Shown: one piece after another, positions 836 through 25,327 of the stretch
Layout of the letters: every line of letters begins with the position of its first letter
Numbering within the stretch: the stretch's first letter is position 1
From: Candidatus Helarchaeota archaeon
GTDB taxonomy: Archaea > Asgardarchaeota > Lokiarchaeia > Helarchaeales > RDOG01
Assembly (NCBI GenBank): GCA_029838215.1
Contig: JALGVI010000041.1
Span: 1-26,651 of the forward strand
Length of the DNA stretch: 26,651 nucleotides
Reading direction: 5' to 3'
Notes under the pieces: generated by a model
Databases searched by the model: none
Told to the model about the DNA's origin: nothing
What the model saw: the letters and a program-made list of their open reading frames with translations, nothing else
Position numbers and translations under genes: made by a program

Positions 836-853
836 TCGTTTTTTACTTTTTTT
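836..853 (+). terminator. Possible archaeal oligo-T terminator between convergent genes
   Basis: T-rich tract (tcgttttttactttttttat) right after the flavodoxin stop, abutting the stop codon of the convergent GTPase gene. Confidence 0.3.
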
Positions 854-1820: not shown

Positions 1821-1954
1821 GATCAGATAGGAATGACCATTGTGTGGTTTTAATGGTAGTCTATATCTATATAATATACGAATTATGTCGAAATTTTTAA
1901 ACTTTTGCAATTAAACTTAGGATAAAAATATAAGGATTCGTTAAGGAGGCTTAA

Positions 1955-7105: not shown

Positions 7106-7345
7106 ATAAGACTCGAAATCAGATTTGGAGAGACCGCTCCTAATTTCACGTTACCCAGCACGGCAGGATCTCCAATGACTTCGAGCGAGTTTCGAAACAA
7201 GAAAAACGTGGTCTTGGTTTTCTTTCGAGGTACTTTTTAAGTACCGTGCCGTGTTCAACTCATGACGTTAAAGAAGCATTAAGATGGTATCAAAGAGTTG
7301 GAAGCAGAAATTTTGGCGACATGCACAGGAACATTAGAGAAAATT
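7106..7345 (+). pseudogene. Degraded, 3'-truncated peroxiredoxin-like (AhpC/TSA, thioredoxin-fold) gene
   Basis: Not in the ORF track. Frame from 7106 reads IRLEIRFGETAPNFTLPSTAGSPMTSSEFRNKKNVVLVFFRGTF*VPCRVQLMTLKKH*DGIKELEAEILATCTG. There is ATA (7106) instead of ATG 5 nt after a GGTGA RBS, TAA at 7238-7240 at the first position of the CxxC-type motif, and TAA at 7280-7282. Similarity fades where the convergent gene's stop codon begins. Confidence 0.8.
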
Positions 7346-7961
7346 ATACCAGAATTAACTTACCAGCAAGACTAACCTCATATCTTGCACGTGTTATCTG
7401 AGTTAGGAGTCCTAAATTTTTCAATTCCTTAATGTGTGTATAAATCATCGGCTTGCTTAAATTTACTTCAGATTTGAAAAACTCAATTTTTAATTCTGGA
7501 TTTTTTGAAAATAATTCGAGAATTTGTCTTTGCTTCGGTTTTAGTTCCCAACTCACGATCGGAAGTTCAATGATCGCATCGGTTTCCTGAGCCATGTAAA
7601 AAAGCTTCTTTACCTTACCAATTCTCTGATATGCCGCGTAAAGCACGCCTGCAAAAATGGTCTTTCGTCCTCCCGTCACGTTGCACGTGATCTCATATCC
7701 TTTTTCGTGAAGGTCATCTATCAGGTTCTTTACGATCTTGCATATTTGGACAATATCATATGCAGGAATGTGAATGATCTCATAATTTATTTCAAAGCCA
7801 TCCAAGAGATTCTTTAATTCCTGAAAATTTTCCTTCTTAGTGATTTGCGGATCATACAAGATCAGATTTTTGTCGACAGGAATCCTTTGGATCCCCTTTG
7901 TTACAGGTGCCGTGAATCTGAAAAATGTTGAAATCAAAGCATTTTTTTTGCGATCGTTCAC
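7344..7961 (-). CDS. csa3: Csa3-like CARF-domain plus winged-HTH transcriptional regulator
   Basis: N-terminal ALISTF strand, Rossmann-like CARF with CNVTGGRK ligand-binding motif, and C-terminal wHTH (KQRQILELF...LSKPMIYTHIKELKNLGLL...YEVSLAG). GTG start with a GGTGG RBS. The symbol denotes the family, not orthology. Confidence 0.8.
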   Translation of the reverse strand: MNDRKKNALISTFFRFTAPVTKGIQRIPVDKNLILYDPQITKKENFQELKNLLDGFEINYEIIHIPAYDIVQICKIVKNLIDDLHEKGYEITCNVTGGRKTIFAGVLYAAYQRIGKVKKLFYMAQETDAIIELPIVSWELKPKQRQILELFSKNPELKIEFFKSEVNLSKPMIYTHIKELKNLGLLTQITRARYEVSLAGKLILV

Positions 7962-7994
7962 GAGATACCACCATGTTAGATATGGAGTTTTTAG

Positions 7995-8048
7995 TTAATA
8001 AATTTTTAGATAAGTCGGATAAAAATTTTTTCAGTTAAGTTTTTATAG
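7995..8048. promoter_or_regulatory. Candidate divergent promoter pair with an inverted repeat between the TATA boxes
   Basis: Minus-strand TTTATTAA at 8002-7995 ahead of the CARF gene; plus-strand TTTATAG at 8042-8048. Inverted repeat aaattttta 8000-8008/taaaaattt 8020-8028 with an 11-bp spacer. The region is AT-rich, so chance matches are possible. Confidence 0.4.
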
Positions 8049-8182
8049 TATTGTCTTGTATTAATTTAACTATGGAAAAATATTTTCACTCACCTCTTTT
8101 TCCCATGGAAATTGAGGCTAAACCGCATGGGAGAAAAAGAACCCCAATACCTTTTCGTGGAGAAATTAAATGAGGGATAAAA

Positions 8183-8671
8183 ATGCCAAGCGTGAATACC
8201 AAAAAAATGCCGAAAAAAAGGAAACCCTTGAGCACTTCAACATATAGACGCTTTCGATACAAGCACAAAAAATGTCAAAAGTGCCACAAGCGTTTCAGAG
8301 ATGGAAATCCTCGTGATAAAATGGAGATTCATCATGTCATTCCACTTTCTCAAGGAGGGACGAATACATACTCAAATCTCAGGGCTCTTTGTGGACAATG
8401 TCATTATTTAGAGCATTCAAATGAGTTCACTGAAGAAGAATTCTTCAGCTTGAGACAAGAACGAGAGGAAAGTCCAAAGGCAAGGGTAAAATCACCTTGG
8501 TGGAGAAAAGTTCGTGAAGAGGGAGACCAAATTTCTCCACCTACTTTTTTGCGCAAAGCCGACATTAATAGTTTCAGATATTTCTCTGGGAGAAGAAGTA
8601 TATTAAAAAACGAAACACATATCAAATTAGAAAAAAGAATACGTGAGGATAGATTTGGAGGAGTTTTTTGA
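8183..8671 (+). CDS. HNH endonuclease (McrA-like, Zn-binding)
   Basis: CQKC...EIHHVIPLSQGGTNTYSNLRALCGQCH: two CxxC pairs plus intact H-N-H residues. The stop overlaps the next start (TTGATG). Confidence 0.9.
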   Translation: MPSVNTKKMPKKRKPLSTSTYRRFRYKHKKCQKCHKRFRDGNPRDKMEIHHVIPLSQGGTNTYSNLRALCGQCHYLEHSNEFTEEEFFSLRQEREESPKARVKSPWWRKVREEGDQISPPTFLRKADINSFRYFSGRRSILKNETHIKLEKRIREDRFGGVF

Positions 8672-10365
8672 TGAAAGTATCCTTTTTTGGTGGAGTCCGA
8701 ACCGTTGGCGGAAATTGCGTGATTCTTGAGCACGCACTCAGCGATGAGGAACCATTCCGCATCATGATTGATTTCGGAAAGAACTTTAAAGATTATGACG
8801 ATTATTATGAAGCATTTTTACGACCTCGTGGGATACAACCCTTGAGGGATCAATTAGCCCTTGGATTGCTTCCCAAAATTGACGGAATATATCGAAAAGA
8901 CCTGTTAGGTATCAATGAAAATGCAGAAATTTCTTTGAAAGAAATCATCGAATCCCACAACGTGATGGTACCAAATCATGCCATAGGTAAAGAAGATCTC
9001 GATCTATGGTCAAGCAGCGTGATTAGTTATGAAGATTATAAAAAAGAACATGATGGTAAGCCTTACCTTGATGCAGTTTTGTTATCTCATGCTCACGTGG
9101 ATCATTCTTCAAACATACCATTTTTAGATCCAAACATTCCGATTTATTGTTCAGGCATTACTAGGGCTTATCTTCAAGTAACCGAAGAAATCTCAGCCAA
9201 AGGCATTGAAGCCGAAATCACACGGGCGAAGATCAGGCAGATTTCTACAACATCAAAATCATCATATTTTCCCGGAAGTTATACTTACAAGGCACCTAAA
9301 AAAGGTGAATTAATAAAAAGGAAGTTTGTTGAAACTACTAATGGTTCTGAAATTCAGATCGAAAAAACGCCTTTTCATGTTAAAGTATTAGAAACAGACC
9401 ATTCAATTCTCGGCTCGCAGGCATTTCTCGTTTTTGTAAATGAACCGGATAGAAAATCCGTGTTCTATACGGGCGATTTGAGATTTCACGGACGAAAAGA
9501 AGACGTTACGGAGAATTTTTTCAGGGATACCGCAGACCTTTCTCCAGACTGCTTGATAATCGAAGGAACAAGGATTACTAGTAATAAACCCGATAATGAA
9601 CACATTGTTGAAGAACGATGCGCGGAAATTATCAAGGAAAGTCCGGGTCTCGTGGTGATTGGATTCTCATGGAGAGATGTAAACAGGTTCGAAACAATCC
9701 TTAATGCAATTCGAAAAAGCAACAGTGAACGCATTTTTGTCATTTCTTCAAAATTGAATTTCCTTTTAAACCGACTAAAGAGCCTCAAAATCAAGGACGT
9801 GCAATTCCTTAACGAAATCCAGCCAGGACAAGTCATGCCTTATTTACCCAGGAAAGCAAGTGGATTTTACACGCTCGGTGACTACGTATATTCGAAACAC
9901 GATGTTGGTTTTGATATCACGTGGGAAAGGGGCAGTAAGACAAGAGAAGCAAGGTCTAATACGTCCCTGTATTATGAATCCATTCGTGCTTATGAGATTG
10001 CACGAAACCCGTCCAAGTTTGTCTTGTTTCTTGATTATTATGATTTTAATGAGCTCATTGACATCTTTAATGAAAAACTCATCACAAGGGCTGATAGCAT
10101 TTATATTGGAGCCATAAGTGAGTATGTTCTTAAAGAAAACAATGGACGGTTACAGAATTGGCTTCGCCACTTTAAAATCAGCGACGATTTACAATTCCAA
10201 GTTCATGCTTCAGGTCACGCCTGCAGAGATGATCTTTTTAAGATAATTTCAAACATGAAACCGAAAAAAGTATTCCCAATTCATACCGAGAAACCGGAAG
10301 AATTTGAGGTCGTTCCCCATAATGTTATAAGCAACATAAAGATTGGTAAGAAATATGAAATCTAA
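8671..10365 (+). CDS. MBL-fold beta-CASP nuclease (RNase J-like)
   Basis: FFGGVRTVGGN, DFG, SHAHVDH (HxHxDH), HS, YTGDLRFHG, IIEGT, HASGH and PIHTE motifs; RBS ggaggag 8657-8663. Confidence 0.85.
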   Translation: MKVSFFGGVRTVGGNCVILEHALSDEEPFRIMIDFGKNFKDYDDYYEAFLRPRGIQPLRDQLALGLLPKIDGIYRKDLLGINENAEISLKEIIESHNVMVPNHAIGKEDLDLWSSSVISYEDYKKEHDGKPYLDAVLLSHAHVDHSSNIPFLDPNIPIYCSGITRAYLQVTEEISAKGIEAEITRAKIRQISTTSKSSYFPGSYTYKAPKKGELIKRKFVETTNGSEIQIEKTPFHVKVLETDHSILGSQAFLVFVNEPDRKSVFYTGDLRFHGRKEDVTENFFRDTADLSPDCLIIEGTRITSNKPDNEHIVEERCAEIIKESPGLVVIGFSWRDVNRFETILNAIRKSNSERIFVISSKLNFLLNRLKSLKIKDVQFLNEIQPGQVMPYLPRKASGFYTLGDYVYSKHDVGFDITWERGSKTREARSNTSLYYESIRAYEIARNPSKFVLFLDYYDFNELIDIFNEKLITRADSIYIGAISEYVLKENNGRLQNWLRHFKISDDLQFQVHASGHACRDDLFKIISNMKPKKVFPIHTEKPEEFEVVPHNVISNIKIGKKYEI

Positions 10366-11458
10366 AGAAGAATTAACCGAAAAGAAGAATTGGACTGCAA
10401 ATTCCTTCGATTTTGTTTACGATGAAGGGCTGATGGAAAAAGCAAAAAAAGAAGCTAAAAAAATCATTGAGAATTACACCAAGTTTCTTGAAAACGTCAA
10501 GAACATGAAATTCGAATACAATCCAATCGAATGCGAGGAAAAATTTCGCAAGATAGCCGCGCTTGACGGTGGAGAGGGGCTTGAGAATCTGTTTGCATCA
10601 AGCATAATCGTGACTCGTGCAGGGGGTGCAGTATTCGAACCATCAAAACGAATCCAGCCGGTCAAACTGTATGACATGTTCATTTCTTCATTAACAGCCG
10701 ATGTTGATAAATTCTCCAATTTATTGCGGGACATTGCAGAATTTAAATTAGCGGATCAATTATTAGATTACAAGCCGGAAATACTCATAATGGATGGTTC
10801 TTTGGTTGGTTACTACAATAGGGGATTACCCTTGCAAGTTTTAGGTTACTTAAACGTTCCAACGGACGAGAAACCGATACTTGAATACATCGAGCAATAT
10901 AAAAATTATGCAAAGTTATTTGACAAGATACTCAAGCGTTGCAGGAAAGAAAATATCATAATAATGGGAGTTTCCAAGGATTCACGCGTCCGATATTTAG
11001 TGAACAAATATAAACTCGATAAAACACTTACGGACTACGGTCTAATTCAATTAAAAATGAAAAAATCAGGATATACACCCCCAATCCAAGCAACACCCCG
11101 CAAGATGGGCATGATTCGAAGAGATGCCATTCAAGAATTCTTTCTAAAAGAAGGTTTGTTTGAAGAGGACCTTGCAGAATTTCAAATTTCATATTTCAAG
11201 CTAAAAGATAGAACAAGACCAGTTAGAGTTGATTTTCCGACTTGGCAGGAAGATCGGTTCGATGAAATAGTCTCTGTCATGAAAACATATCACGATGACC
11301 AAGGTTTTCTATTAACGGCCCATTTGGTCCATAATTGGGCGGTAATGAATGACGAGATAAAAACAAACGTGATTAATGTAATAAAAAGCGAGATTTTAGA
11401 GTCAGATCCCATGATTTATGAGGCAATTTTCAGTGATCAAAGAAGAATGAATATTTAG
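10355..11458 (+). CDS. nurA: DNA double-strand break repair nuclease NurA (copy 1)
   Basis: AALDGG, RDIAE, IMDGSL, GVSKDS and C-terminal LTAHLVH motifs; lies directly upstream of herA. The ORF track starts at 10343. Confidence 0.85.
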   Translation: MKSKEELTEKKNWTANSFDFVYDEGLMEKAKKEAKKIIENYTKFLENVKNMKFEYNPIECEEKFRKIAALDGGEGLENLFASSIIVTRAGGAVFEPSKRIQPVKLYDMFISSLTADVDKFSNLLRDIAEFKLADQLLDYKPEILIMDGSLVGYYNRGLPLQVLGYLNVPTDEKPILEYIEQYKNYAKLFDKILKRCRKENIIIMGVSKDSRVRYLVNKYKLDKTLTDYGLIQLKMKKSGYTPPIQATPRKMGMIRRDAIQEFFLKEGLFEEDLAEFQISYFKLKDRTRPVRVDFPTWQEDRFDEIVSVMKTYHDDQGFLLTAHLVHNWAVMNDEIKTNVINVIKSEILESDPMIYEAIFSDQRRMNI

Positions 11459-11468
11459 AGGTAGGAAA

Positions 11469-13109
11469 ATGTCAAAAACAGAATTGATTGGTAATTTATT
11501 TGGAATGACAACACCCATTGAGGTCAAAATCATCCTAGATCCAAACGTGACTCGAACCAAACCGGTCGAAATCGGTGAATACATCACGATTGGTTATCCA
11601 AAAGAAGTCCTTAAAGAAGAGGTACTTGCTCTCATAACGGATGTTGGTTTGTTAAATGAAAGCATTCCCGACTCCTTGATGAAATCACCAGAGAGTTATA
11701 AAAAACTCGAGCGTTTAGGTGATTTTTCAGGGGGAGAAAAATTACTTGCAAGTGCCAGAATCATTGGCTATTACGATGAAAAGGAAAAAACATTGAAGTC
11801 GCCACGCTTTCCTTCAGTTCCAGGCGCGAAGGTCTATCGGTCCAATATCGATATCTTGAGAAAAGTCTTCTCCGCAGGTCAGGTTCGGATTGGACATCTT
11901 CGTGCACATCCTGACGTAGAAGTTACAGTTGATGTAAATGAATTGGTTCGACGGCATACTTGCATCTTGGCAATAACGGGTGCGGGAAAGGGAAATACCG
12001 TGGCAGTATTATCCACGCGAATTCTGAAATTAAACGGAAGCATAATAATAATTGACCCTCACGAAGAATATCCCAGCCTGCGAGAGTTTGAAGATTTCAA
12101 TGATAAAGTGGTTGTTTTTTCACCGTCTGGAGACACCTCTAAGGGCTACTTTCCTCTCAAGTTTAAATGGAGCAATTTCTCAACGGAAGAGTTGTTCGAA
12201 ATTTTCGAAATAAAGGAAAACGCAACCAAGCAACAAGCCCTCATTCGTGAAGTTCTTGACGTGTTGGAAGATCAAGAATGGGATTTGGACCAATTTAAAT
12301 TCGAACTGGGACGAGTAGAATTACCTGAAGAAGATGATGAGGAAGAAGGGAAAAAGAAAAAGAAGAAAGATCGTTTTAAAGGTGTTAGGCCTGTAGTTTT
12401 GGACCATATTAAGGGTCTTAAAGCACAAGAAATCTTCGATAAAAGAATGGAAACACCAATCGTGGACGAAACAGGTCCGTGTTTTGTCAAGCCAGGTCAA
12501 ATAACAGTAATAAGTGTATCGAACCTCCCGCAAAGAGTGCAACAAGTAGTAGTCGCACGATTAGCAAAGAAAATTTATGAAGCAGGTGTTGCTTGGCGGA
12601 GAAAGATAAGTGATAAAACACAACTTCCTTGTCCAACCTACATGATCATCGAAGAAGCTCACAATTTCATTCCCGCCCGTGGAAGTTCCCGTTCATTAGC
12701 ACCAATTGCCCGAATAGCTGCAGAGGGGCGAAAATTTGGAGTTGGTCTTTGCGTGGTAAGTCAGCGTCCCGGAAAAATCGAACCGAACATATTAAGCCAG
12801 TGCAATTCTCAGATTATCCTAAAGATAGTAAACCCTGAAGACCAATCCCAGATTCGACGTTCAGCAGAAGCGATGAGCGACGATCTACTTGCCGATCTTC
12901 CGAGCTTGAATAAAGGCGAGGCAGTAATAATTGGGTCTTGTTTACTTTTACCTGCATTAGTAAAAATTGACAAGTTTACAGGAGAGTTAGGCGGTGATGA
13001 TATTAACATCATTGGAGAATGGAAATCCACGGCACTTAAAAATGACAAAAGTGAAGATCCCGGTCCGGATTATACTAAAAATAAGAAAATTGAACGGAGA
13101 ACGTGGTAA
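11469..13109 (+). CDS. herA: HerA helicase/translocase (HAS barrel plus DUF87 ATPase), copy 1
   Basis: N-terminal HAS-barrel region, ELVRRHTCILAITGAGKGNT (Walker A), IIDPHEEY, MIIEEAHNF (Walker B), AEGRKFG, SQRP and SQCN motifs. Confidence 0.92.
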   Translation: MSKTELIGNLFGMTTPIEVKIILDPNVTRTKPVEIGEYITIGYPKEVLKEEVLALITDVGLLNESIPDSLMKSPESYKKLERLGDFSGGEKLLASARIIGYYDEKEKTLKSPRFPSVPGAKVYRSNIDILRKVFSAGQVRIGHLRAHPDVEVTVDVNELVRRHTCILAITGAGKGNTVAVLSTRILKLNGSIIIIDPHEEYPSLREFEDFNDKVVVFSPSGDTSKGYFPLKFKWSNFSTEELFEIFEIKENATKQQALIREVLDVLEDQEWDLDQFKFELGRVELPEEDDEEEGKKKKKKDRFKGVRPVVLDHIKGLKAQEIFDKRMETPIVDETGPCFVKPGQITVISVSNLPQRVQQVVVARLAKKIYEAGVAWRRKISDKTQLPCPTYMIIEEAHNFIPARGSSRSLAPIARIAAEGRKFGVGLCVVSQRPGKIEPNILSQCNSQIILKIVNPEDQSQIRRSAEAMSDDLLADLPSLNKGEAVIIGSCLLLPALVKIDKFTGELGGDDINIIGEWKSTALKNDKSEDPGPDYTKNKKIERRTW

Positions 13110-14462
13110 ATGATCGTGAAATGGGGTCACTTTTCAGACACGCATCTTGGTTATCGGCAGTATGGCTTGAAGGAGCGCATGAACGATTTCTATAACTCCG
13201 CCAGAACTTGTGCTGAACTCATCATCAAGCAAGAACCTGATTTCGTAATTTTCGCAGGAGATCTCTTTGAGAATTTCAGACCATTACCCGTGGATTATAG
13301 ATCAGCTTTCGAGCTCCTTAAATTATTCAAGAAGAAGGACATTCCAGTCTATGCTATTCGAGGCAATCACGATGCATCATACGCGGCTTCAAAAAGATAC
13401 GGAGGAGATGTCCTTGATTTTTTGCACGACATCAATTTAATAACTTACGTTCAAGATGAAGTCATCATCGCAAAAAAAGGAGAAAAAGACCTTGCAATTA
13501 TCGCAGGTTTAGGGTATTACGGCAAGCGAACCTCAAAACGGTTACAAGAATTGTTAAATGATAATAAAGTACTCTTGCAACGGCAAGACCTTCCAAAAAT
13601 ACTCATGATTCACGCATTTGTTGAAGGAATGGTTCCAGATACTAAAGAAGACGTGAAAATGTACTTCTTGAGTCAGTTACCCTTTGACTACATTGCCATT
13701 GGGCATTATCACCAGCTTTGGCCCAGTGATTTTGACAAACCTGGCAACAAATTTTTCTGTTCTGGTTCCACGGAACATTGGAGCGCAGGCGAATGGGATG
13801 AAAAGGAGGGAAATCTCTCAAAAGGGTCGAAAAAGGGTTTTTACACGGTAGAAGCAGAAAAGAACGGAAGTGAATGGAAAATTAGACCTTCTTTAACCGA
13901 ATATCCTGTTCGTCCAAAATTCTACGCCCATTACGATTTGAAATTCACGAATCCTAAAAAAATAAGGTCAACAATCAAGGAATTTTTAGATAAGTATGAT
14001 AAAAAAGACCATCTATTAAAGATGAATTTAAGGGGACAATTGAAAAGAGGCGATTTGGCACTCCTCAACATGATGGAGTTAAAAGACATGGCAAATAACG
14101 CCTTATATTTTGATTTAATAACTCAATTCATGGATTCTTCGTATGATATCGAACGTGGATTATCGACTCGAGATGCCATAATAGATATCTTGAGAAAAAA
14201 TTATGGTCTAAAAAACGAAGATTTGGATGAATATACGTCGTTAATTGAAGATATATTGAGTATTGTTAACGATAAAGAGTTTTCTTCGAAGAGCATCGAA
14301 AGAATTAAAGCATCAGTCCCAAAAATGTCAGTAATCCTAGGTGATGATTTAGATGACAAACCCAAGAAAAAGACAACTAGAAAAACGAAAGTAAAAAAAA
14401 TAAAAAGAAGCAAGAAGAAATCGGGCTCAAAAACAAAGAAATCATTGGAGGGATTCATTTGA
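13110..14462 (+). CDS. mre11: DNA repair exonuclease Mre11
   Basis: Phosphoesterase motifs SDTHLG, AGDLFE, RGNHD, MIH and GHYH; Lys-rich C-terminal tail; starts immediately after the herA stop (TAAATG). Confidence 0.93.
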   Translation: MIVKWGHFSDTHLGYRQYGLKERMNDFYNSARTCAELIIKQEPDFVIFAGDLFENFRPLPVDYRSAFELLKLFKKKDIPVYAIRGNHDASYAASKRYGGDVLDFLHDINLITYVQDEVIIAKKGEKDLAIIAGLGYYGKRTSKRLQELLNDNKVLLQRQDLPKILMIHAFVEGMVPDTKEDVKMYFLSQLPFDYIAIGHYHQLWPSDFDKPGNKFFCSGSTEHWSAGEWDEKEGNLSKGSKKGFYTVEAEKNGSEWKIRPSLTEYPVRPKFYAHYDLKFTNPKKIRSTIKEFLDKYDKKDHLLKMNLRGQLKRGDLALLNMMELKDMANNALYFDLITQFMDSSYDIERGLSTRDAIIDILRKNYGLKNEDLDEYTSLIEDILSIVNDKEFSSKSIERIKASVPKMSVILGDDLDDKPKKKTTRKTKVKKIKRSKKKSGSKTKKSLEGFI

Positions 14463-17254: not shown

Positions 17255-17275
17255 AATTAAATCGGTGAAAATGAG

Positions 17276-19141
17276 ATGTCGAATGAAAAAACAACAAGAA
17301 AGCCGAAAAAAAAATCTGTTAAGATAACAAAGAGAATAACTAAAGATGGGGAAATCTTTCAAGCATTCGATTCTCGACTAACATCTTGCATTGAAGAAAA
17401 TGATTTCTTGACAAGTTACGAATTGATAAATGAAGCCAAGGAATTCGTCGATGCAGGCAAATTAACAAAAAAATCTCTTAACCTATTACGATCATTTTAT
17501 GAAAAGAAAATAGAGAAAAAATTAGAAGAACTCGGCTTCGTTGACGTCTCAAATAAAATTCTTTCAACGACTTTTTACTGCATGACACAAAGCTGTAATT
17601 TAGCACTCCGAGGTCCACCCGGAGTTGGAAAATCCTTTTTTGCCAAATCAGTCCTGCCTCATTTATGGGTTCAGGATGGAGAACTCCCAACAGTCATGAC
17701 AATTCAACCCGATCGTAACATGGATGTGGCAAGTCTCATCGTTGAAAAAGGTCTGAAAGAAGGTTCGACTGTTCCTGAAAAAGGACAAATTCATGATGCA
17801 ATGACCAAGGCAAATGATGGTAAACGGGTTATCTTGGTCTTAGAAGAAATAAATCAGTGGCCACCGAAAGTCCTTAAGGATTTAAACGATTTTCTTCAAG
17901 AACGTCGGATTGAAAAGAAAATTTCCGAGATGGACATCATTCTCGAATGTCCTAAAGAAAATTTATTGGTGATTGCGAATTACAATCCAGAAGGAGAAAC
18001 ATTGGGAGAGGATGAGACGGGTAGCGTTTCTTCACGCTTCATATTCTGTGACTTACAATTTCCTTCACGCGAAGACATTCAAAAAATTATTGCTCTTAAT
18101 ATCAACGAACGAGAATTTCGCCCTTTACGTGTTGGATTCGAAAGAAAAAAAGTATGCACGAAACAATTCTTGCGAGCAATGTCCGATGTTTGTTATTCCA
18201 TCAGGAGTGCAATACAACAGGGAGACCTAGGAATGATGGCAATGCAATTAGGCACGCGACATATTATTAATTTTTCAAGGGCTCTTTTCGAAAATAATAC
18301 GATTACGGAAGCCATCATGAAGACATTGGTCGATCCAATCTTGGAAAAATATGTAAGAGAAGGAATCAAGGCAAATGTGGAACCAAAAATATATGAAGAT
18401 TATGTTAGAACAATTTTCAAGGCAGTGAAACAAGTTCTCGGAACAAAGGAACCGATAAATGAAAAAAGCCTGAAGTCCTTAAAAAAAGGATTAGATATAA
18501 CGGCAAGTGAATTATTTAAGTTGAGATCTCAGGAAGCATTCATCATTGATTTGAATGAAACTCCTAAAAACAAGTCTTCTGCAAAGATTGAGAAGGTAAA
18601 AAAGAAAGTTGCAAAAACAGCTAAACGGAAAGTTAGGAAGAAACCCATTACTAAAGAATTGGAAGAATTAGGAATTGACGTGTCCAAACGGTCACAAAAA
18701 CAGGAGAAACCTGAAAAGGAAGATGCACGCGATCCACTCATTCAGTCTATTGATAAACACTTGAAACCGAGATTAAAAACTGGAAAGAAAAAGGAGGTTC
18801 AAGAGGAAAAGATCACCGAAAAGGTCGAACACGAAAAAAAGAGCACCACGGAAAAGAAAGTAACACGTTCAAAGACCGTTGGTGGGTTAATTTGTCCAAA
18901 GTGCGGTGAAGAAATGAAAATAGTCGTGAATAAAAAAAGAACCTTAGTCTGTCAAAAATGCATGAAACTGATAGAACTTCCAATTTTTGGTGATATTAAC
19001 GTGACGGACAAGATCTGTAAAAAGCATGGTTATGGGATTTTTGAAATTGACTACGAGAAATCGGATCCGTATTGCATATGTCCGGAGTGCTTTGACAGAA
19101 AACATAAAACCTGTAATGTATGTGATGAAGACTGTATATAG
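17276..19141 (+). CDS. MoxR/CbbQ-type AAA+ ATPase with charged linker and C-terminal Zn fingers
   Basis: Walker A GPPGVGKS, Walker B LVLEEIN, sensor-I IANYN, Arg-finger SSRF and GTRH. C-terminal CPKC/CQKC and CKKH/CICPEC/CNVC. Adjacent to a vWA gene, as is typical of MoxR proteins. Confidence 0.85.
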   Translation: MSNEKTTRKPKKKSVKITKRITKDGEIFQAFDSRLTSCIEENDFLTSYELINEAKEFVDAGKLTKKSLNLLRSFYEKKIEKKLEELGFVDVSNKILSTTFYCMTQSCNLALRGPPGVGKSFFAKSVLPHLWVQDGELPTVMTIQPDRNMDVASLIVEKGLKEGSTVPEKGQIHDAMTKANDGKRVILVLEEINQWPPKVLKDLNDFLQERRIEKKISEMDIILECPKENLLVIANYNPEGETLGEDETGSVSSRFIFCDLQFPSREDIQKIIALNINEREFRPLRVGFERKKVCTKQFLRAMSDVCYSIRSAIQQGDLGMMAMQLGTRHIINFSRALFENNTITEAIMKTLVDPILEKYVREGIKANVEPKIYEDYVRTIFKAVKQVLGTKEPINEKSLKSLKKGLDITASELFKLRSQEAFIIDLNETPKNKSSAKIEKVKKKVAKTAKRKVRKKPITKELEELGIDVSKRSQKQEKPEKEDARDPLIQSIDKHLKPRLKTGKKKEVQEEKITEKVEHEKKSTTEKKVTRSKTVGGLICPKCGEEMKIVVNKKRTLVCQKCMKLIELPIFGDINVTDKICKKHGYGIFEIDYEKSDPYCICPECFDRKHKTCNVCDEDCI

Positions 19142-19203
19142 GGGGAGATATTTCGCAAACAATCAGTTCAGATCCTTTAATTGGACCCGCATCGTATGAT
19201 GAA

Positions 19204-21501
19204 TTGAAAAAAACAATTGCCATTTGCTCTCAAAATCCCCGGATCGAATTGCAATTTTGTAAAAATGGTTACTACACGGATGGAGAAACAATATTTCTAA
19301 GTCCTCCTCCAACAGAAGTAAAACAAGTGAAAAGATGGATTCTTCTCGAATCTTGTGCAATTCATGAGGCCTGGCATGTTCTATTTCAATCAGATTTTGA
19401 TTTATTGAAAGAATTCATAGAAAAATACGAAAAAAAATACAAAGCAAGGATACCTGACATTGGGAATATTGCCAAGGACATCGTAAACATCATTGAGGAT
19501 GGGAGGATCGAGAACCTGGGTAAAAAACGATTTCAGGGAAATAAAAATACGATAGATTATTCAAATAGCTACTGGCTAACAAAACGTCCATCTTTTAAGA
19601 ACATGTCAGACTGGAGAATTTTTTTAGAGGCAATTCTTGAAGTGTCAATAACAGGAGGGATAAAAGAACGAATTCCTGATGGAGATCTCAAGCGACTCAT
19701 TCAAGCAGCAAGTTTCTATATCTATTGGGCGAAAGAAAGGTTAGATCCAACAGCAACATTTAAAGCTGCAGATAAGATAATGACGTTATTATTGGACTTC
19801 TTCGATTTGGAAGAACCATATTGCGCAGAAACAAAATTGCATCCATCACTAAAATCAAAAGATTCAGATTCCAGCACTGAAGAAAGTTCAGGCACGGCAA
19901 CACCACCTCCGTTACCATCAGAATTAGAACAAGAATTGGATACAATTAAAAAGAAAAGAGAAAAAACTGGAAAAAAAAGTTCCAAATCGACTACAAAGAA
20001 TTCAAAACACGCATCAGAGACGGATAATAAGTCAGGAAAAATGAATGATGTTGATGATAAACTAAAGGGCTTAAATGGAAATCCTGACGTGACGGATAAT
20101 TTAAAGACTAAGAAGGATAAGCCGGAAGATTTTGGAGGTACTAGTCATGAGTCAGAAAATGATGACGACTTCGATAGAGGCTCAGGAGACACTGATGAAA
20201 AGAAAAGTCCTGAAATAAAAAAATCCCCCTCAAAAACCAAGTCCAAATCGAAATCAAAAGCAAATAGAAAAGAAAATCATTCAAAAAACGGGCCTGAAAG
20301 TACATCAAAACACGGCACGAACCATGAAACCAGTCATGATGACATACCGATCATTTCAAGCATGGACCTCGATCCATTTAAACAAAACCTGCTTGATGAG
20401 GCTTCACTAAGAATAAAGATAGAAGATATTTCAAAACGGAACATCCGTTTAATTAATGAAAAAGAAATAGAACACAAGTTGAATGCATTTATCGCAGATC
20501 TCAAGCGAAAAAAGATTTTCAGCAGGGTATTCAAGACAGAAACACAGGATGTTGGAGTTGAAATTCCAATCATTGCAGGACCCAAGAGTCAACATGTCTT
20601 TAATGGTATCAAAAAGTCCATTCAGAAGATCATTCAGGTCACGATCAACCAATTTAAATCACTATTCAAATTTGGGATGAAAAGTTCCAGTCAATTAAAA
20701 TCAGGGAGACTAGATGTTAAACAGGTAGTCCGAGGAATCGTTCGACAAGATCCGCATGTCTTCAAGAAGAAAGTTCTGGAAAATAGCCGGGACGAAATTG
20801 CCATTTCATTATTGATAGATCAAAGCGGTAGCATGTCCGGTTCAAAGATAAAAAATGCTCGGAAAGCAGCAATCTTGTTTAGTGAAGTTTTAAGTGCATT
20901 GAGCATTTCGTTTTCAGTATATGGATGGACGGATATTGAATTTCTACAAAATCATCGCTTGAAATCTATTTTTGGAACTCGATTAAATGCTTTGCATAGA
21001 AAAAACGTGCCCCAGGGAATTAACAGGGAATTCTTTACAATTTTTCGTTATAAAGACTTCAAAGAAGAGTATTCTGAAACGGCTTTTAGGTTAGCAGAAA
21101 TTAAAGCATTTGCAGATAATTCAGACCACAACGCCATAAATTTTGCAGCAGAACAGCTTCTCAAGACGAAAAAACGGTTAAAAATTCTCTTTGTTATTAG
21201 CGACGGACAGCCGGCTGCTTTAGTATATGAATATAAAGCAGAAGAGATTTGTCGTTCCCAAAGTATTTGGGTAGAGCCAGGTAATGTCGGTCTTAATCTC
21301 ACTCGCCAAGCCGTAGAAGCGGCACGGTCAAAAGGAATCCAAGTCATATGCTTGAGCATTGATGAATGTCAAAATTATCAAGAAGAAATCTATGGGAAGA
21401 ATAATTACATAATTTTACCTCCCAGAAGAATTTCGGAATTACCAAACAAAATGGCAAACATCTTGCGACTACTATTAAGACAAGCAGGTTTCAAGTTGTG
21501 A
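19204..21501 (+). CDS. vWA-domain protein (CobT/NorD/CbbO-like) with N-terminal HExxH domain
   Basis: HEAWH at 19363 and NIIEDGRIE; S/K/D-rich linker; MIDAS DQSGS at 20818 and SDGQP at about 21199. The true start may lie upstream of TTG 19204. Confidence 0.85.
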   Translation: MKKTIAICSQNPRIELQFCKNGYYTDGETIFLSPPPTEVKQVKRWILLESCAIHEAWHVLFQSDFDLLKEFIEKYEKKYKARIPDIGNIAKDIVNIIEDGRIENLGKKRFQGNKNTIDYSNSYWLTKRPSFKNMSDWRIFLEAILEVSITGGIKERIPDGDLKRLIQAASFYIYWAKERLDPTATFKAADKIMTLLLDFFDLEEPYCAETKLHPSLKSKDSDSSTEESSGTATPPPLPSELEQELDTIKKKREKTGKKSSKSTTKNSKHASETDNKSGKMNDVDDKLKGLNGNPDVTDNLKTKKDKPEDFGGTSHESENDDDFDRGSGDTDEKKSPEIKKSPSKTKSKSKSKANRKENHSKNGPESTSKHGTNHETSHDDIPIISSMDLDPFKQNLLDEASLRIKIEDISKRNIRLINEKEIEHKLNAFIADLKRKKIFSRVFKTETQDVGVEIPIIAGPKSQHVFNGIKKSIQKIIQVTINQFKSLFKFGMKSSSQLKSGRLDVKQVVRGIVRQDPHVFKKKVLENSRDEIAISLLIDQSGSMSGSKIKNARKAAILFSEVLSALSISFSVYGWTDIEFLQNHRLKSIFGTRLNALHRKNVPQGINREFFTIFRYKDFKEEYSETAFRLAEIKAFADNSDHNAINFAAEQLLKTKKRLKILFVISDGQPAALVYEYKAEEICRSQSIWVEPGNVGLNLTRQAVEAARSKGIQVICLSIDECQNYQEEIYGKNNYIILPPRRISELPNKMANILRLLLRQAGFKL

Positions 21502-22559
21502 AAGAGGGAATGATCATGAAAGACGATGAAATCACGAAAATTTTTTCCGAACTTGATGAAATCTCAGACTCTGGAAGCAAAAAACCAGAAAAAATGATAC
21601 CTCGATCAGTTCAGAAAAAAATCATTAATGATAAAGAAGATGATAAGCACGAAGAGTTAGCCGAAGACGAAGAAATAAAATTAACCAAGAATGATGATGC
21701 TTTCAAGCCAATAAAAGCAAATATCTCCAACAAGTCGGCATTACCACTCTGTGCAATAGATACATCATCAATGTTAGTGGGAGAAACCAACATGGGAATC
21801 ATTTCTGCAGTTCGTGGTTCAATCGTGGTCATTGAGAAACAGATAAAAGTCGAGCAGTTCGGACCTTACGTTCTCCATTTTACAGAAAAGAACAAACAAG
21901 CATGCTATGATTTTTTCCAGCAAAAAATTTTCAACATTAAAAATAAAAGAAAGTCACCAAAATTACAAAAAATGACAGATCGGTTTCGAAATTTCCTCGA
22001 ACGAATCCTGCAAAAATATGCTTGCACGACAATTTCAGGTGGTTTGGTTTTTTTCGATGGTTCGCTAACTGCAGGAACCGTTGACACGCCTAAACAGATG
22101 CTTGAAAACATAATCACGACAGCAAAAAAGAGGAAAAATAACATAATATCAATCTCAAAACGGTCTTGGATTAAACTTTCAAATGGAGATAAAGTGATTG
22201 ACGTTCTAGATCGAAAATTTTATCCATGTTATGTAAAAATTCACGATTATCTTTCACCAATGAATAAATCTCGCGTGTTGGGAACAGTATTTGCTTGCCG
22301 CTTTTCGCATCGAGGTTTTACTTTCAGGACTGATGTGAATTCTCATGTTCCTAGCAAGGAAGAGCAAGCACTTAAAAACGTGTATCAATGCGTTGATTTT
22401 TATAAAGGTTATCCGAATGTGTTGAGACTCGCTCACATGCATTGTTATTTCACGAAATATGAGCTTCTAGCCATGCAAACGTATTCATTACAAAAATATG
22501 GAATGCGAGTATATCAAGATTATGATATAAGAAACCAAATTCTTTCACCATTTAGTTAG
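21498..22559 (+). CDS. NurA-family nuclease (copy 2)
   Basis: CAIDTSS, RNFLE, FFDGSL, SISKRS and GYPNVLRLAH motifs; acidic N-terminal extension. The start may be ATG 21516 after a gaggg RBS. Confidence 0.8.
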   Translation: MKEGMIMKDDEITKIFSELDEISDSGSKKPEKMIPRSVQKKIINDKEDDKHEELAEDEEIKLTKNDDAFKPIKANISNKSALPLCAIDTSSMLVGETNMGIISAVRGSIVVIEKQIKVEQFGPYVLHFTEKNKQACYDFFQQKIFNIKNKRKSPKLQKMTDRFRNFLERILQKYACTTISGGLVFFDGSLTAGTVDTPKQMLENIITTAKKRKNNIISISKRSWIKLSNGDKVIDVLDRKFYPCYVKIHDYLSPMNKSRVLGTVFACRFSHRGFTFRTDVNSHVPSKEEQALKNVYQCVDFYKGYPNVLRLAHMHCYFTKYELLAMQTYSLQKYGMRVYQDYDIRNQILSPFS

Positions 22560-22571
22560 AAGGGTTGAAAA

Positions 22572-24134
22572 ATGGAAATATTTGATAAAAAAGGAAACGA
22601 ATTAATCCTGATCTATGATCCCGTTCAGGAAAAAGACCCTGAAGTGGGAACTAATTTTCTCGTCTTCGATTCAGTTACCCAGCGGGGACTACTTGTATTT
22701 ATAATCGAACAAAATCTCGTCAACGTTCCGGGCATTTTGGAGGAATTGGTTCGAACAGTCGGCTTTGGAAAAGTCGTCACGACAACGCACGTCCCACCAG
22801 AATTGGGAACGTATCTAATAGATGTCAAAAACATGAAATTTGCCCGTGCAAAAATCATCAAGGAGATTAATCTCAATAAGGATAATCCCGACAAGTCGAA
22901 AATAACAAATTGGACAGGGTGGATTCCAACAAGAAATGTGCAAATTAAAAAATTGGACGATAAAACATTAATTCCATGGCTCGAATTTTCTAACAAATAC
23001 TTGATGACTGTCGGAGTCACCAGAATCGATAAACATCCATTCAAGGTTAATGCGGGGTATTTTCAGGGCATTCTTTTGGTTGTTGGTAAAAAAGGATCTG
23101 GGAAATCTCATTTAGTTAAGATAATAACTTTGGAGATCTGTGATCATGGTGGGAAATTTCTGATTTTTGACATCAATAATGAATATGCTAGTCTGGGAAA
23201 GGATCCAGCAGGTAAGCCAAACAAGTATTATAATTGCATTTTGAACTTCACGCCAGGTGATGATTTAAAATTCACGCTCGAGTATGTTGGACTTCCTGTA
23301 TTCACTCAAATTTTATTTCTAACAGGCATTGATGAAACGCGGCCTCAGTATGGTAGTTTCAGGAGCATTTGGCTGGAATTGGAAAACGCCGGCACTTTAA
23401 ATACTACGACTCTTCGTGATGAGATTCAAACACGATTAGTTCAGAGTGGACAGAGCATTAGTCAGAATATCGGGCATGCACTGCTACGGCGGCTGAAATT
23501 GATCTTTGACACGGGACTGTTCACGGACCATCCAGCATCAGCCGTCCGGCTTGAAAAGGAATTTAAGAATATAAAAAAAGGAGGAGCAATAGTCATCAAC
23601 CTAAAAGGAACGGAGAAGCTGGTTCGAGACATTGTTGTCCGCACGATGCTCGAAAAAGTAAGTAAAATTTTAGAAGATCCCAAAGCGGAACCATTATTCT
23701 TGCTTGCTGAAGAATCACAGCTTTATTTTGAAGAGCGAGTCTTTGAAAATCTCATCACCAGAATGCGCCATCTCGGTCTTTATCAAATCTATGTGACCAA
23801 CACGCCAACAGCATTACGGGACATCGTCATTCGACAAACGGATAACATTTTCTTGTTTCGTTTAAGTAGTGAAAATGACGTACGTCATTTGATTGCGGCA
23901 ATTCGACTTGATCGCGAAGCAATCTTTGCTTTGACAAACTCACTTCCTTTTCGAACCTGTTTAGCAATCGGCACGTGCACGAATGAATATCCTTTTCTCG
24001 TTGAGCCAAGAGAACTTGATGTTCTGGCATCTGGTAAAACACGACTATTATTCCCAGATTATAAAGAAATCGATGATGAAGAAGAAGATGAATACGACGA
24101 GGATGATGATGACGATACGAAATTGCAAGCATAA
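22572..24134 (+). CDS. HerA-like DUF87 ATPase (copy 2) with acidic C-terminal tail
   Basis: Walker A GKKGSGKS, IFDINNEY, Walker B LLAEESQ, TRMRHLG, TNTP, RQTDN; tail EIDDEEEDEYDEDDDDD. Confidence 0.85.
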   Translation: MEIFDKKGNELILIYDPVQEKDPEVGTNFLVFDSVTQRGLLVFIIEQNLVNVPGILEELVRTVGFGKVVTTTHVPPELGTYLIDVKNMKFARAKIIKEINLNKDNPDKSKITNWTGWIPTRNVQIKKLDDKTLIPWLEFSNKYLMTVGVTRIDKHPFKVNAGYFQGILLVVGKKGSGKSHLVKIITLEICDHGGKFLIFDINNEYASLGKDPAGKPNKYYNCILNFTPGDDLKFTLEYVGLPVFTQILFLTGIDETRPQYGSFRSIWLELENAGTLNTTTLRDEIQTRLVQSGQSISQNIGHALLRRLKLIFDTGLFTDHPASAVRLEKEFKNIKKGGAIVINLKGTEKLVRDIVVRTMLEKVSKILEDPKAEPLFLLAEESQLYFEERVFENLITRMRHLGLYQIYVTNTPTALRDIVIRQTDNIFLFRLSSENDVRHLIAAIRLDREAIFALTNSLPFRTCLAIGTCTNEYPFLVEPRELDVLASGKTRLLFPDYKEIDDEEEDEYDEDDDDDTKLQA

Positions 24135-24190
24135 TTTTTATAAAAGATCAAGACCGAAATGATTTTAACAAAATTATCAAGGGGAGAAAA

Positions 24191-25327
24191 ATGCGTGGTG
24201 TTTTTAAAGTAGATTCTGTAGCAGATCTCGTAATGAAATGTCTGAAAAGTGATTCTCAAGATATTTCTGAAAAAGAAAAAGTCTTGTTAATTGACATGGC
24301 TCAGGACATATATGATGAATATCCTGAAGTCATAGAAGAAAATGAACTCTCAAGCGAATCTCCAAATGAATGGTCTATAAATGACGTGAAGACTATTTTC
24401 AATCAGATAGAACGAAATCTTTCTAATATTAATGATGATATCCTGAAAAAAATCGGTGACCAAGTCCGAATCTTTGAATCCGATAATATCTTATTTAAAA
24501 ATTATATGGTACTTTCCAAGGTTTTTTCATCTGGAGACTCACTTAGCAAGAAGAAATGTCGTTTTTGGGAAGAATTTTTTGCCTATAACCATGCTTCAAG
24601 AGAAATTGGTTTTTTTGAAGATTCTACGATAGATTCTGCGATCCAACCAGCGGGCAAGATAAAACCAGAGACTTCATTATTAAATCAGACAGTTGACATA
24701 AAGATTTTTAGCATATATGCGTGGAAATACCCAGGCATTTTCGGTAAAAAATATGAAGTCTTATTTAATTATGATATTTTACATGAATTAACAAATGGCA
24801 AGACAGAAAAGATCAACTTCAATCAAAAATATGATTTGAAAAAACGAAGTTTTGCAAGTATCAAGGGCAAGTATATCTTGAAAAATCTCAAAGTTACAGA
24901 TAGAGGAATTAACGTATATATCAAGACCATTAACGTGCAGAATAAAGATGATACGAGAATACTTGAACTCCTTAACTCTGATGCAGTAAATAATGGTGTT
25001 GAACTACTATCGACTTTTCAACCGGTCATCAAACCATTTATTGCTATCGGAAAGAAAATTCTGGAACAGATTAATAAAAGCAACAAAAATCGAATCGTTC
25101 AAGAAATCGACATGTCTCTTGATTTAAACCAGACAGCAGCAGGACCAAAACTTCGCGAAGGAAATTACATCATCGTTCAATATCCATCAGGTTCAAATTG
25201 TCGAGAACCATGGGATTGGTCAAAATGGAAATGGAATAGCCAATATGAAACTCCCATGGGTCCAAATAATTCCCGTATCGAGTGGAATTATATCATATTT
25301 TCAGTAGTAAGATCCCCTACAAGATAA
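24191..25327 (+). CDS. Hypothetical protein (helical N-terminus, beta-rich aromatic C-terminal domain)
   Basis: 378-aa ORF with RBS aggggag; last co-oriented gene of the cluster; no family confidently recognised. Confidence 0.7.
   Translation: MRGVFKVDSVADLVMKCLKSDSQDISEKEKVLLIDMAQDIYDEYPEVIEENELSSESPNEWSINDVKTIFNQIERNLSNINDDILKKIGDQVRIFESDNILFKNYMVLSKVFSSGDSLSKKKCRFWEEFFAYNHASREIGFFEDSTIDSAIQPAGKIKPETSLLNQTVDIKIFSIYAWKYPGIFGKKYEVLFNYDILHELTNGKTEKINFNQKYDLKKRSFASIKGKYILKNLKVTDRGINVYIKTINVQNKDDTRILELLNSDAVNNGVELLSTFQPVIKPFIAIGKKILEQINKSNKNRIVQEIDMSLDLNQTAAGPKLREGNYIIVQYPSGSNCREPWDWSKWKWNSQYETPMGPNNSRIEWNYIIFSVVRSPTR

Follow-up and report, generated by a model that had tools for sequence, protein, structure and literature searches.

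Eukaryotes have their closest known relatives in the Asgard archaea. The machinery with which these repair DNA breaks is uncharacterised by experiment, and the nearest described system, the archaeal herA-mre11-rad50-nurA operon (Sulfolobus, Pyrococcus, Thermococcus) for resection of double-strand-break ends, is reviewed with the Asgard NurA listed as uncharacterised (PMC13748450). Here we analyse a 26,651-nucleotide stretch of DNA (the window: contig C103 of G000, the 3.6 Mb, 94%-complete genome of a Candidatus Helarchaeota archaeon) in which the same four families, clustered and translationally coupled as in the described operon, stand within a run of eleven plus-strand genes. Mre11, Rad50 and NurA keep their motifs intact, and the locus is chromosomal and present in a single copy. 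It differs from the described operon in its gene order (nurA-herA-mre11-rad50), in a Gly-containing Walker A motif in HerA1, in scores below equivalog cut-offs for all four proteins, and in extra conserved genes, which the papers searched do not mention and which encode an AAA+ ATPase, a zincin-vWA protein, a beta-CASP nuclease and an HNH nuclease.

An earlier note on this DNA had read the eleven genes as one CARF-regulated system for DNA end processing or defence. We find a known operon in a lineage-specific variant, and the striking 11-gene run is a composite: the cluster consists of three layers, namely a resection core (NurA1-HerA1-Mre11-Rad50), lineage-conserved accessories and genome-specific additions. 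Comparison of related loci suggests that the accessory genes are undescribed repair helpers rather than antiviral defence. The locus as a whole is, we think with some reserve, probably a repair operon with lineage-specific helpers and not an antiviral system, because no PADLOC system was matched, Pfam and PADLOC recognised no VMAP component, a single Mre11 was found, the flanks are housekeeping, and conservation looks vertical.

Results

Gene content of the locus

The window contains a minus-strand open reading frame (ORF) at 7344-7961 and, across a divergent intergenic region of 221 bp, eleven plus-strand ORFs spanning 8183-25327, with spacings, in order, of -4, -23, 10, 0, -4, 21, 62, -4, 12 and 56 bp. 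The genes are as follows (lengths in amino acids, aa):

7344-7961, minus strand: Csa3-like regulator, CARF plus winged helix (Pfam HFX_2341_N, HTH_11, Csa3_N, CARF_Card1)
8183-8671, plus strand: small standalone HNH nuclease, 162 aa, first of the plus-strand run (Pfam HNH, 3.1e-14)
8668-10365, plus strand: beta-CASP metallo-beta-lactamase nuclease, 565 aa (Pfam Lactamase_B_2, RMMBL)
10343-11458, plus strand: NurA1 nuclease, core resection gene (Pfam NurA, 3.3e-15)
11469-13109, plus strand: HerA1 hexameric translocase, core resection gene (Pfam DUF87, 2.1e-38)
13110-14462, plus strand: Mre11 nuclease (Pfam Metallophos, 7e-19)
14459-17254, plus strand: Rad50 ABC/SMC ATPase with zinc hook (Pfam AAA_23, SMC_N, SbcC_Walker_B)
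17276-19141, plus strand: AAA+ ATPase of the MoxR/CobS-like class, 621 aa (Pfam AAA_5, 3.4e-10)
19204-21501, plus strand: zincin-like N-domain, long, charged low-complexity linker and CobT-type vWA domain, 765 aa (Pfam CobT_C, 8.9e-08)
21498-22559, plus strand: NurA2, paralogous NurA-like nuclease (Pfam NurA, 9.7e-07)
22572-24134, plus strand: HerA2, paralogous HerA-like ATPase (Pfam DUF87, 4.9e-16)
24191-25327, plus strand: protein of an uncharacterised, mostly bacterial family, 378 aa (no Pfam or PADLOC family match)

The gene run, order, strand and tight spacing (gaps of -23 to +62 bp) are as the earlier note had given them, Pfam agrees with its domain calls, the catalytic motifs are intact, and its tally of five nucleases and four ATPases is correct.

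The AAA+/zincin-vWA pair recurs beside Mre11-Rad50

The AAA+ ATPase and the zincin-vWA protein are encoded as a pair in nine distinct organisms, at loci with 65-81% nucleotide identity. Below, G000 denotes the source genome, G001 a same-family relative, G002, G003 and G005 order-level relatives, and L-numbers fetched loci. Eight of the nine loci are informative on neighbourhood. L031 is identical to the two G003 contigs and connects one with the other. The pair adjoins the Mre11-Rad50 cluster in seven of the eight informative Helarchaeota-type loci, and in six of these (window, G005, G003, L015, L029 and L033) the genes follow one another co-directionally as Mre11-Rad50-AAA+-vWA. At L017 the pair is divergent from a paralogous NurA-HerA-Mre11-Rad50 cluster that is ~25% identical to that of the window. 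Genes for beta-CASP, HNH and a CARF-class winged helix-turn-helix (wHTH) protein each occur in five of the nine loci with order and strand shuffled: an HNH-HAD-regulator trio is convergent on the vWA gene in G003 and G005, and beta-CASP adjoins the regulator in L015 and L030. In partial support of the earlier note, the accessory genes are non-random neighbours, inasmuch as the pair, beta-CASP, HNH and CARF-class wHTH recur around Mre11-Rad50 in nine loci. That the gene set has been kept despite rearrangement, and next to each of two paralogous cores, is our main evidence for the functional link that we propose.

The family is small. The vWA protein has six close relatives among 5.8 billion proteins, the AAA+ protein was found in three others among 185,579 species genomes, and homologues are named Candidatus Helarchaeota. 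No description of MoxR/vWA or beta-CASP genes with Mre11-Rad50 was found in the literature searched, with most subscription journals outside the search. A Helarchaeota-type Rad50-AAA+-vWA segment (L027; DATKTP010000227.1, the same as G003 contig C227) occurs in a metagenome-assembled genome that bears the label Candidatus Deferrimicrobium, probably through mis-binning of the contig or mislabelling of the bin.

Domains and conserved motifs of the pair

In the AAA+ protein, the Walker A motif GPPGVGKS and four C-terminal CxxC pairs are conserved (alignment A1). The tail consists of tandem zinc ribbons of the topoisomerase-IA type and matches the C-terminal zinc-ribbon region of an Asgard Toprim/Topoisom_bac type IA topoisomerase at E 3e-10 with the Cys pairs in register; in class-level relatives, matches to the AAA+ protein are confined to this tail and lie within ORFs of 725-758 aa, one of which encodes the topoisomerase just named. 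The zinc-ribbon region of type IA topoisomerases binds single-stranded DNA. We conclude, from sequence comparison, that the tail is homologous to topoisomerase IA zinc ribbons, and we predict that it binds DNA. The AAA core is closest to AAA_5 clusters of tailed viruses (Uroviricota), and a distant virus-context relative, which belongs to a pair in the virus-like contig L018, has no tail. The AAA+ protein has no sequence match in the PDB, and its full-length AlphaFold model, from an alignment of four sequences, has a pLDDT of 49.

In the vWA protein, the motifs HExxH, NxxEDxxxE, DxSGS and SDGQP, the last two constituting the MIDAS (an adhesion site that depends on a metal ion), are invariant in nine sequences. 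Solved CobT is matched by the family profile at 5.5e-28, and NorD comes next. The N-terminal 215 residues are modelled with a pLDDT of 92.9, and this model resembles the N-domains of the CobT-like vWA proteins of haloarchaeal and bacterial tailed viruses, including those of HHTV-2 and HCTV-2, with TM scores of 0.74-0.76 (E 4e-6). Among solved structures compared by VIA-align, almost all of the best matches are zincins: the minigluzincins abylysin, selecase and jannalysin (Z 6.7-7.0), followed by Ste24 (Z 5.8), Spartan (6mdx; Z 5.5), ArdC (Z 5.0) and Wss1 (Z 3.9). Because these Z-scores are modest, and because a Foldseek search of the N-domain against the PDB returned nothing at E <= 0.001, the zincin assignment leans on the motif as well as on VIA-align. 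A predicted complex of the vWA domain (residues 470-765) with Mre11 scored 0.00, which gives no verdict either way.

The start of the vWA gene probably lies upstream of the TTG at 19204. The ORF has 25 open codons upstream of this first canonical start (window 19129-19206), and the stretch 19171-19203 encodes DPLIGPASYDE, which together with the Leu of the TTG at 19204 gives DPLIGPASYDEL, matching the conserved N-terminus of all homologues. The open stretch upstream of 19204 contains no ATG, GTG or TTG, and an ATC at 19162 falls where homologues have Met. This points to one of three causes: a sequencing error, a point change or a non-canonical start.

The resection core

The four core genes are clustered on one strand at 10343-17254, with internal gaps of 10, 0 and -4 bp. 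Core orthologues with 33-63% identity are syntenic in G002, G003, G005 and metagenome contigs, and NurA1 orthologues in particular, ~49-50% identical, are syntenic in G005, G003, L015 and L029. The phosphoesterase His/Asp/Asn residues of Mre11 are invariant (alignment A4), and Rad50 has a Walker A motif GKNGAGKST, a CTSC hook at residue 497, and the motifs LSGGEQ and LLDEP. The scores are far under the NCBIfam equivalog cut-offs (HerA 264 vs. 800 bits; Mre11 114 vs. 500 bits, with an E-value of 1e-32 that is still below cut-off), and all four core proteins are, as judged by these scores, divergent Asgard forms. Mre11 has a single match in G000; the check for another copy, which the earlier note had called for, thus leaves the window Mre11 as the sole one found in this 94%-complete genome. 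We conclude that NurA1-HerA1-Mre11-Rad50 is the chromosomal double-strand-break end-resection operon, of archaeal type, of a Helarchaeota-type Asgard archaeon, its role in resection being predicted.

A second, paralogous HerA(544)-Mre11(367)-Rad50(873) operon is present on G002 contig C98 (L023 8696-16414), indicating that Helarchaeales carry two types of Mre11-Rad50 cluster. The HerA1 Walker A motif (window 11970-11999) reads GAGKGNT, with Gly in place of the Ser/Thr that normally binds Mg. This variant is kept in the type-A orthologues of L015 and L014 and is therefore not an error; HerA2 and the paralogous type-B HerAs are canonical. The Gly Walker A is a lineage trait, and HerA1, in which the remaining HerA features are present (DUF87 at 2.1e-38), is a variant member of the HerA family.

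G000 holds two further HerA-family loci, on C97 and at the end of C6. The former (L037 8158-10887) carries a third NurA-HerA pair, which adjoins a CTP synthase gene. The latter (L038 1332-8140) carries a second beta-CASP gene, 58% identical to the L017 type, near a gene for an OB-fold/staphylococcal-nuclease fusion protein, with the HerA-like ORF at the contig end.

The beta-CASP nuclease, the HNH nuclease and the CARF-class regulator

The beta-CASP motifs SHAHVDH (HxHxDH), DHS, YTGD, EGT, HASGH and PIHTE are all conserved in seven family members, and motif C is His. Assignment to aCPSF1 or RNase J was rejected on scores of 35-45 bits against NCBIfam cut-offs of 400-820. We conclude from these comparisons that the protein represents a subfamily separate from aCPSF1 and RNase J and widespread in archaea. 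Besides the window, a beta-CASP gene is present in the G003, L015, L030 and L017 loci. The closest relatives (36-42% identity) include genes that lie between Mre11/SbcD and Rad50/SbcC in two bacterial-looking contigs (L034 5992-11745 and L035 6741-12178, with PNPase, S15, RmuC and UvrA nearby). One of the two contigs also encodes a Cas4-like PD-(D/E)xK nuclease, giving the order Mre11-(Cas4-like)-beta-CASP-Rad50. No description of such a three- or four-gene Mre11-beta-CASP-Rad50 operon was found in the literature searched.

The HNH nuclease has an intact HH...N...H motif and two intact CxxC pairs, and homologues with 38-40% identity are found close to the cluster in G005, G003, L015 and L030, differently placed and oriented.

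The window regulator has a CARF Rossmann domain followed by a winged helix, the Csa3-type layout. It matches PADLOC CARF3 over its full length (1.8e-41) and PADLOC Csa3 (2e-14), and it scores 49.6 bits against NCBIfam cas_HTH, under the cut-off of 60.2. A homologue in G002 is divergent from the HerA-Mre11-Rad50 operon of the paralogous type. A search of G000 with one query found no HFX_2341-type regulator. The window contains no cas genes, and G000 has Cas1 on another contig; no Cas10 (Csm1/Cmr2) was found in this 94%-complete genome, so that control of the CARF domain by cyclic oligoadenylate has no support here. In three of 29 further Asgard beta-CASP loci the beta-CASP gene is adjoined by a CARF-class regulator: L044 360-2928, L066 162-2368 and L071 904-2946. 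The regulator is of the HFX_2341 type in G002, and two phylum-level relatives have the Csa3 type, suggesting that CARF-wHTH and beta-CASP form a regulator-nuclease module independent of Mre11-Rad50. The earlier description of the run as CARF-regulated is accordingly weakened, as relatives use a non-orthologous CARF-class regulator and such regulators track beta-CASP at least as closely as they track the core. Regulation of the operon by the CARF protein is plausible, and the regulator may belong primarily with the beta-CASP/HNH genes.

Genome-specific additions

The last three genes do not extend the conserved set. HerA2 has no close counterpart in 40 relatives, and tblastn found no NurA2 in the fetched Helarchaeota-type loci. 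The HerA2 family, to which the window contributes a member with a canonical Walker A motif, occurs in Njord-, Odin- and Bathyarchaeia and in Thermoproteota with up to 43% identity and in contexts without Mre11-Rad50. At L020, an archaeal contig, the HerA2 homologue is preceded by a NurA2 homologue (38% identity), again with no Mre11-Rad50 in the context; in the Odin and Bathyarchaeia HerA2 loci the partner gene differs. Asgard genomes often carry several NurA genes (PMC13748450). We conclude that NurA2-HerA2 is, to judge from its distribution, an independent, widespread archaeal pair that stands next to the operon in this genome alone. A gene for a eukaryote-type topoisomerase IB lies near the NurA2-HerA2-like pair of L020 (8892-10403).

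The last gene (24191-25327) was not found in 40 relatives and has no Pfam or PADLOC match. The C-terminal domain of its product (~240 aa) has 293 homologues, most of ~300 aa, with bacterial nearest atlas clusters. In part of these proteins it is joined to a module of the PLC-type phosphoesterase, ceramidase, LCAT-like lipase or VgrG3/LysM kind, which suggests a lipid- or envelope-directed domain. A TATA-like sequence, TTTTTATAAAAG, directly follows the HerA2 stop codon, and the gene is probably separate, with its own promoter, and outside the DNA machinery. The 378-aa protein was also considered as the third member of a NurA2-HerA2 module and rejected: it has no similarity to the gene beside the L020 pair and belongs to a different family. 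A single 11-gene system, as the earlier note had proposed, is not what we find: 40 relatives yielded neither a close counterpart of NurA2-HerA2 nor a match to the last gene, and the fusion of that gene's family to phospholipase, ceramidase and lipase modules speaks against its membership in the unit.

Genomic setting and search for defence systems

The flanks of the window encode a flavodoxin, a Roadblock-Ras GTPase fusion, PrpD, ferredoxins, a YdjM-like protein and pyruvate:ferredoxin oxidoreductase. The fusion (852-1910, minus strand) joins Roadblock/LC7 to a Ras/Roc/Arf-like small GTPase and is a eukaryote-like signature protein typical of Asgard archaea. The setting is an ordinary chromosome, neither an island nor a mobile element. 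A look-up of sequencing runs of any kind listed none that contains this DNA. A scan of the window for bacterial-type promoters and terminators found fewer sites than in shuffles, the models being not applicable to archaea.

PADLOC-DB 2.0 recognised no complete system, as the earlier note had expected, and returned generic family matches alone (HerA, CARF, HNH, SMC head), with no match for beta-CASP, NurA1, NurA2, Mre11, the AAA+ protein, the vWA protein or the last gene.

Discussion

The results are consistent with a resection pathway to which a DNA-tethered motor and a protease-like partner have been added. In the mechanism that we propose, Mre11-Rad50 would recognise and nick the DNA end and HerA-NurA would resect it, with beta-CASP and HNH trimming blocked or structured ends that Mre11 and NurA cannot handle. 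The zinc ribbons would tether the AAA+ motor to exposed single-stranded DNA, whether resected or unwound, and the MIDAS site of the vWA domain would grip protein at the end, be it a blocking or cross-linked protein or the repair complex itself. The AAA+ motor would then remodel the gripped protein with ATP, possibly with cleavage by the zincin domain, so that the end is cleared or the complex recycled. Acting at the shared 221-bp region, the CARF regulator would probably govern both the operon and the nuclease genes. Described MoxR-vWA pairs capture a peptide at the MIDAS site, and their ATPase remodels it (PMC7159879). We infer that the remodelling or clearance of proteins at DNA ends is the probable task of the AAA+/zincin-vWA pair.

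The main alternative mechanism, which we consider unlikely, is that the pair is a maturation or metal-insertion chaperone for Mre11, NurA or beta-CASP, which would load or swap their metal centres or put their complexes together, and in which HExxH binds metal rather than cutting. NorQ-NorD, CoxD-CoxE and CobS-CobT carry out metal loading or assembly for their targets; the vWA domain belongs to the CobT family and next resembles NorD, and the three neighbouring nuclease types are all metal-dependent. MoxR-vWA pairs are, moreover, known maturases of metal centres and complexes (PMC7159879). Yet the topoisomerase-type tail of the ATPase would be superfluous in a maturase, the full HExxH...E sits in an N-domain folded like a zincin peptidase, and most archaea operate these nucleases with no chaperone of the kind. 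The database names of some homologues would make the pair a genuine CobS-CobT cobaltochelatase for cobalamin synthesis, and one homologue is indeed named 'cobaltochelatase CobT-related' and the vWA profile matches solved CobT. This we regard as most improbable and reject: no CobN (PF02514) was found in G000, while five control genomes were positive, no cobalamin genes occur at any locus of the pair, the vWA protein scores 28.5 bits against a cut-off of 759 for NCBIfam CobT (TIGR01651), and the ATPase carries a DNA-binding-type tail. A third possibility concerns the whole locus, namely an inducible antiviral or anti-plasmid machine, in which an extension of the core under CARF control would serve the degradation of foreign linear DNA or the production of spacer substrates, much as the earlier note had suggested. 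Each of the HerA, SMC/Rad50-like, HNH and MoxR-vWA-peptidase modules is known from defence systems (PADLOC family matches; PMC7159879), the AAA+/vWA pair has viral affinities, the regulator belongs to the CARF class, and G000 has Cas1, with Csa3a known to couple repair genes to spacer acquisition (PMC5587795). Against defence, the PADLOC similarities are generic and make up no system, the Mre11 is the sole one found in the genome, the flanks are metabolic or housekeeping with no defence island, the cluster shows vertical-looking conservation over two families within one order, a Cas10 that could supply a CARF ligand was not found, and the described MoxR-vWA conflict systems have a VMAP/iSTAND component (PMC7159879), which Pfam and PADLOC did not recognise here. 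We judge the antiviral explanation distinctly unlikely.

Several observations weigh against our preferred reading of the pair as a repair helper, and some of them favour the view that there is no functional link at all: a virus-derived CobS/CobT-like pair would have integrated beside rad50 in an ancestor and been inherited there, with the other accessories as chance neighbours. Outside the lineage, the closest relatives of both proteins are viral, and the family is tiny. In G001, a genome of the same family, the pair is found by itself amid acyl-CoA metabolism genes and the nearest Mre11-like gene is ~400 kb away, so that adjacency to Mre11-Rad50 is not obligatory; in G002 a type-A core is present and the pair is not. 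Every linked locus belongs to a single order, and the synteny could largely reflect shared ancestry within it. Chance juxtaposition is nevertheless improbable in our estimation, given that the pair at L017 lies beside a paralogous cluster and in divergent orientation, which implies independent juxtaposition or retention through rearrangement, that the order around the core is shuffled while the gene set stays, that the cellular ATPase has gained a DNA-binding-type tail that its virus-context relative does not have, and that all motifs are under conservation. Further points against our reading concern its parts. The structural matches to zincins reach Z 5-7 at most, and the protease activity is putative. 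Mre11, Rad50, NurA or HerA lies within 1.5 kb in none of the 29 other Asgard beta-CASP loci, and the idea that all Asgard beta-CASP genes stand beside Mre11-Rad50 is rejected. The window regulator is not orthologous to the HFX_2341-type regulators of other loci. Finally, contig C6 stops beside the second beta-CASP gene and the HerA-like gene, and a second Mre11-Rad50 cluster could have been lost from the assembly. Taken in full, the joint proposal, that a domesticated virus-type pair with a single-stranded-DNA anchor clears protein at ends beside Mre11-Rad50, with beta-CASP as a recurrent third nuclease, is tentative, and we would call it possible rather than likely.

The repair reading is of interest for what it would add. 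A DNA-tethered AAA+ ATPase with a protease-like vWA partner would be a new accessory activity in the archaeal resection pathway, and the pair offers a testable candidate for clearing protein-blocked DNA ends in an archaeon. The link between beta-CASP and Mre11-Rad50 extends into bacteria and merits a survey of its own; if the joint proposal is true, the beta-CASP subfamily of archaeal and bacterial Mre11-Rad50 operons would be an analogue of Artemis/SNM1.

Comparison with described systems

The regulator invites comparison with Csa3a of Saccharolobus islandicus, likewise a Csa3-class CARF-wHTH protein associated with resection genes. Csa3a of S. islandicus binds and directly activates the herA and nurA promoters (PMC5587795; see also PMC7515695), and in Sulfolobus it couples repair genes to spacer acquisition (PMC5587795). 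Unlike Csa3a, the regulator here is encoded in cis with no cas genes nearby and scores below the cas_HTH cut-off, no Cas10 was found in its genome, and relatives carry the HFX_2341 type instead.

The pair itself shares with the CobS-CobT cobaltochelatase a MoxR-class AAA+ ATPase plus a CobT-type vWA/MIDAS subunit; as no CobN was found in G000, a chelatase role is very unlikely. With the MoxR-vWA ternary conflict systems (Kaur et al. 2020, PMC7159879) it shares a MoxR AAA+ ATPase and a vWA domain fused to a peptidase-like domain. It differs from these in having no effector diversity, no defence-island context and no match to a PADLOC model, and in a vWA domain of the CobT type; neither Pfam nor PADLOC identified a VMAP/iSTAND third component, whether in the window or at nine related loci, no dedicated VMAP profile having been used.

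The closest architecture is that of the pairs in tailed viruses, including cyanophages, haloarchaeal tailed viruses and jumbo phages, which combine a MoxR-class AAA+ ATPase with a protein that is metallopeptidase-like at its N-terminus and has a CobT-type vWA domain at its C-terminus (described in jumbo phages in PMC7824862 and as 'cobST' in tailed viruses in PMC8651126). The likeness extends to the N-domain fold and to the viral affinities of the AAA core. The window version is in contrast cellular, vertically conserved in one archaeal order and linked to Mre11-Rad50, and its 621-aa ATPase, with the zinc-ribbon tail, is twice as long as the viral AAA+ proteins of ~300 aa. Viral pairs sit in replication/recombination modules: at L018 the pair lies among genes for SSB, a YqaJ exonuclease and a RecD2-like helicase. 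In Pseudomonas phage nickie (L039 5897-9298), cobT-cobS lies between DNA ligase/primase and DNA polymerase III alpha genes, not with structural or cofactor genes. The role proposed for the viral pairs is cobalamin supply or virion assembly, not DNA repair (PMC7824862; PMC8651126). If our joint proposal is true, the widespread viral 'CobS/CobT' pairs would be DNA-metabolism factors and not cobalt chelatases, a function that is testable for the viral 'cobS/cobT' genes.

The functional parallel, by analogy only, is with Cdc48/p97 acting with Wss1 or SPRTN, in which an AAA+ motor and a DNA-directed zincin protease likewise meet at damaged DNA, the activity here being putative. The pair differs in having no sequence homology to Cdc48, in best zincin matches that are minigluzincins (Z ~7) and not SprT, and in carrying its predicted DNA-binding module on the ATPase and not on the protease. 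If the joint proposal is true, the pair would be a prokaryotic functional counterpart of Cdc48/p97 with Wss1/SPRTN in the repair of DNA-protein cross-links.

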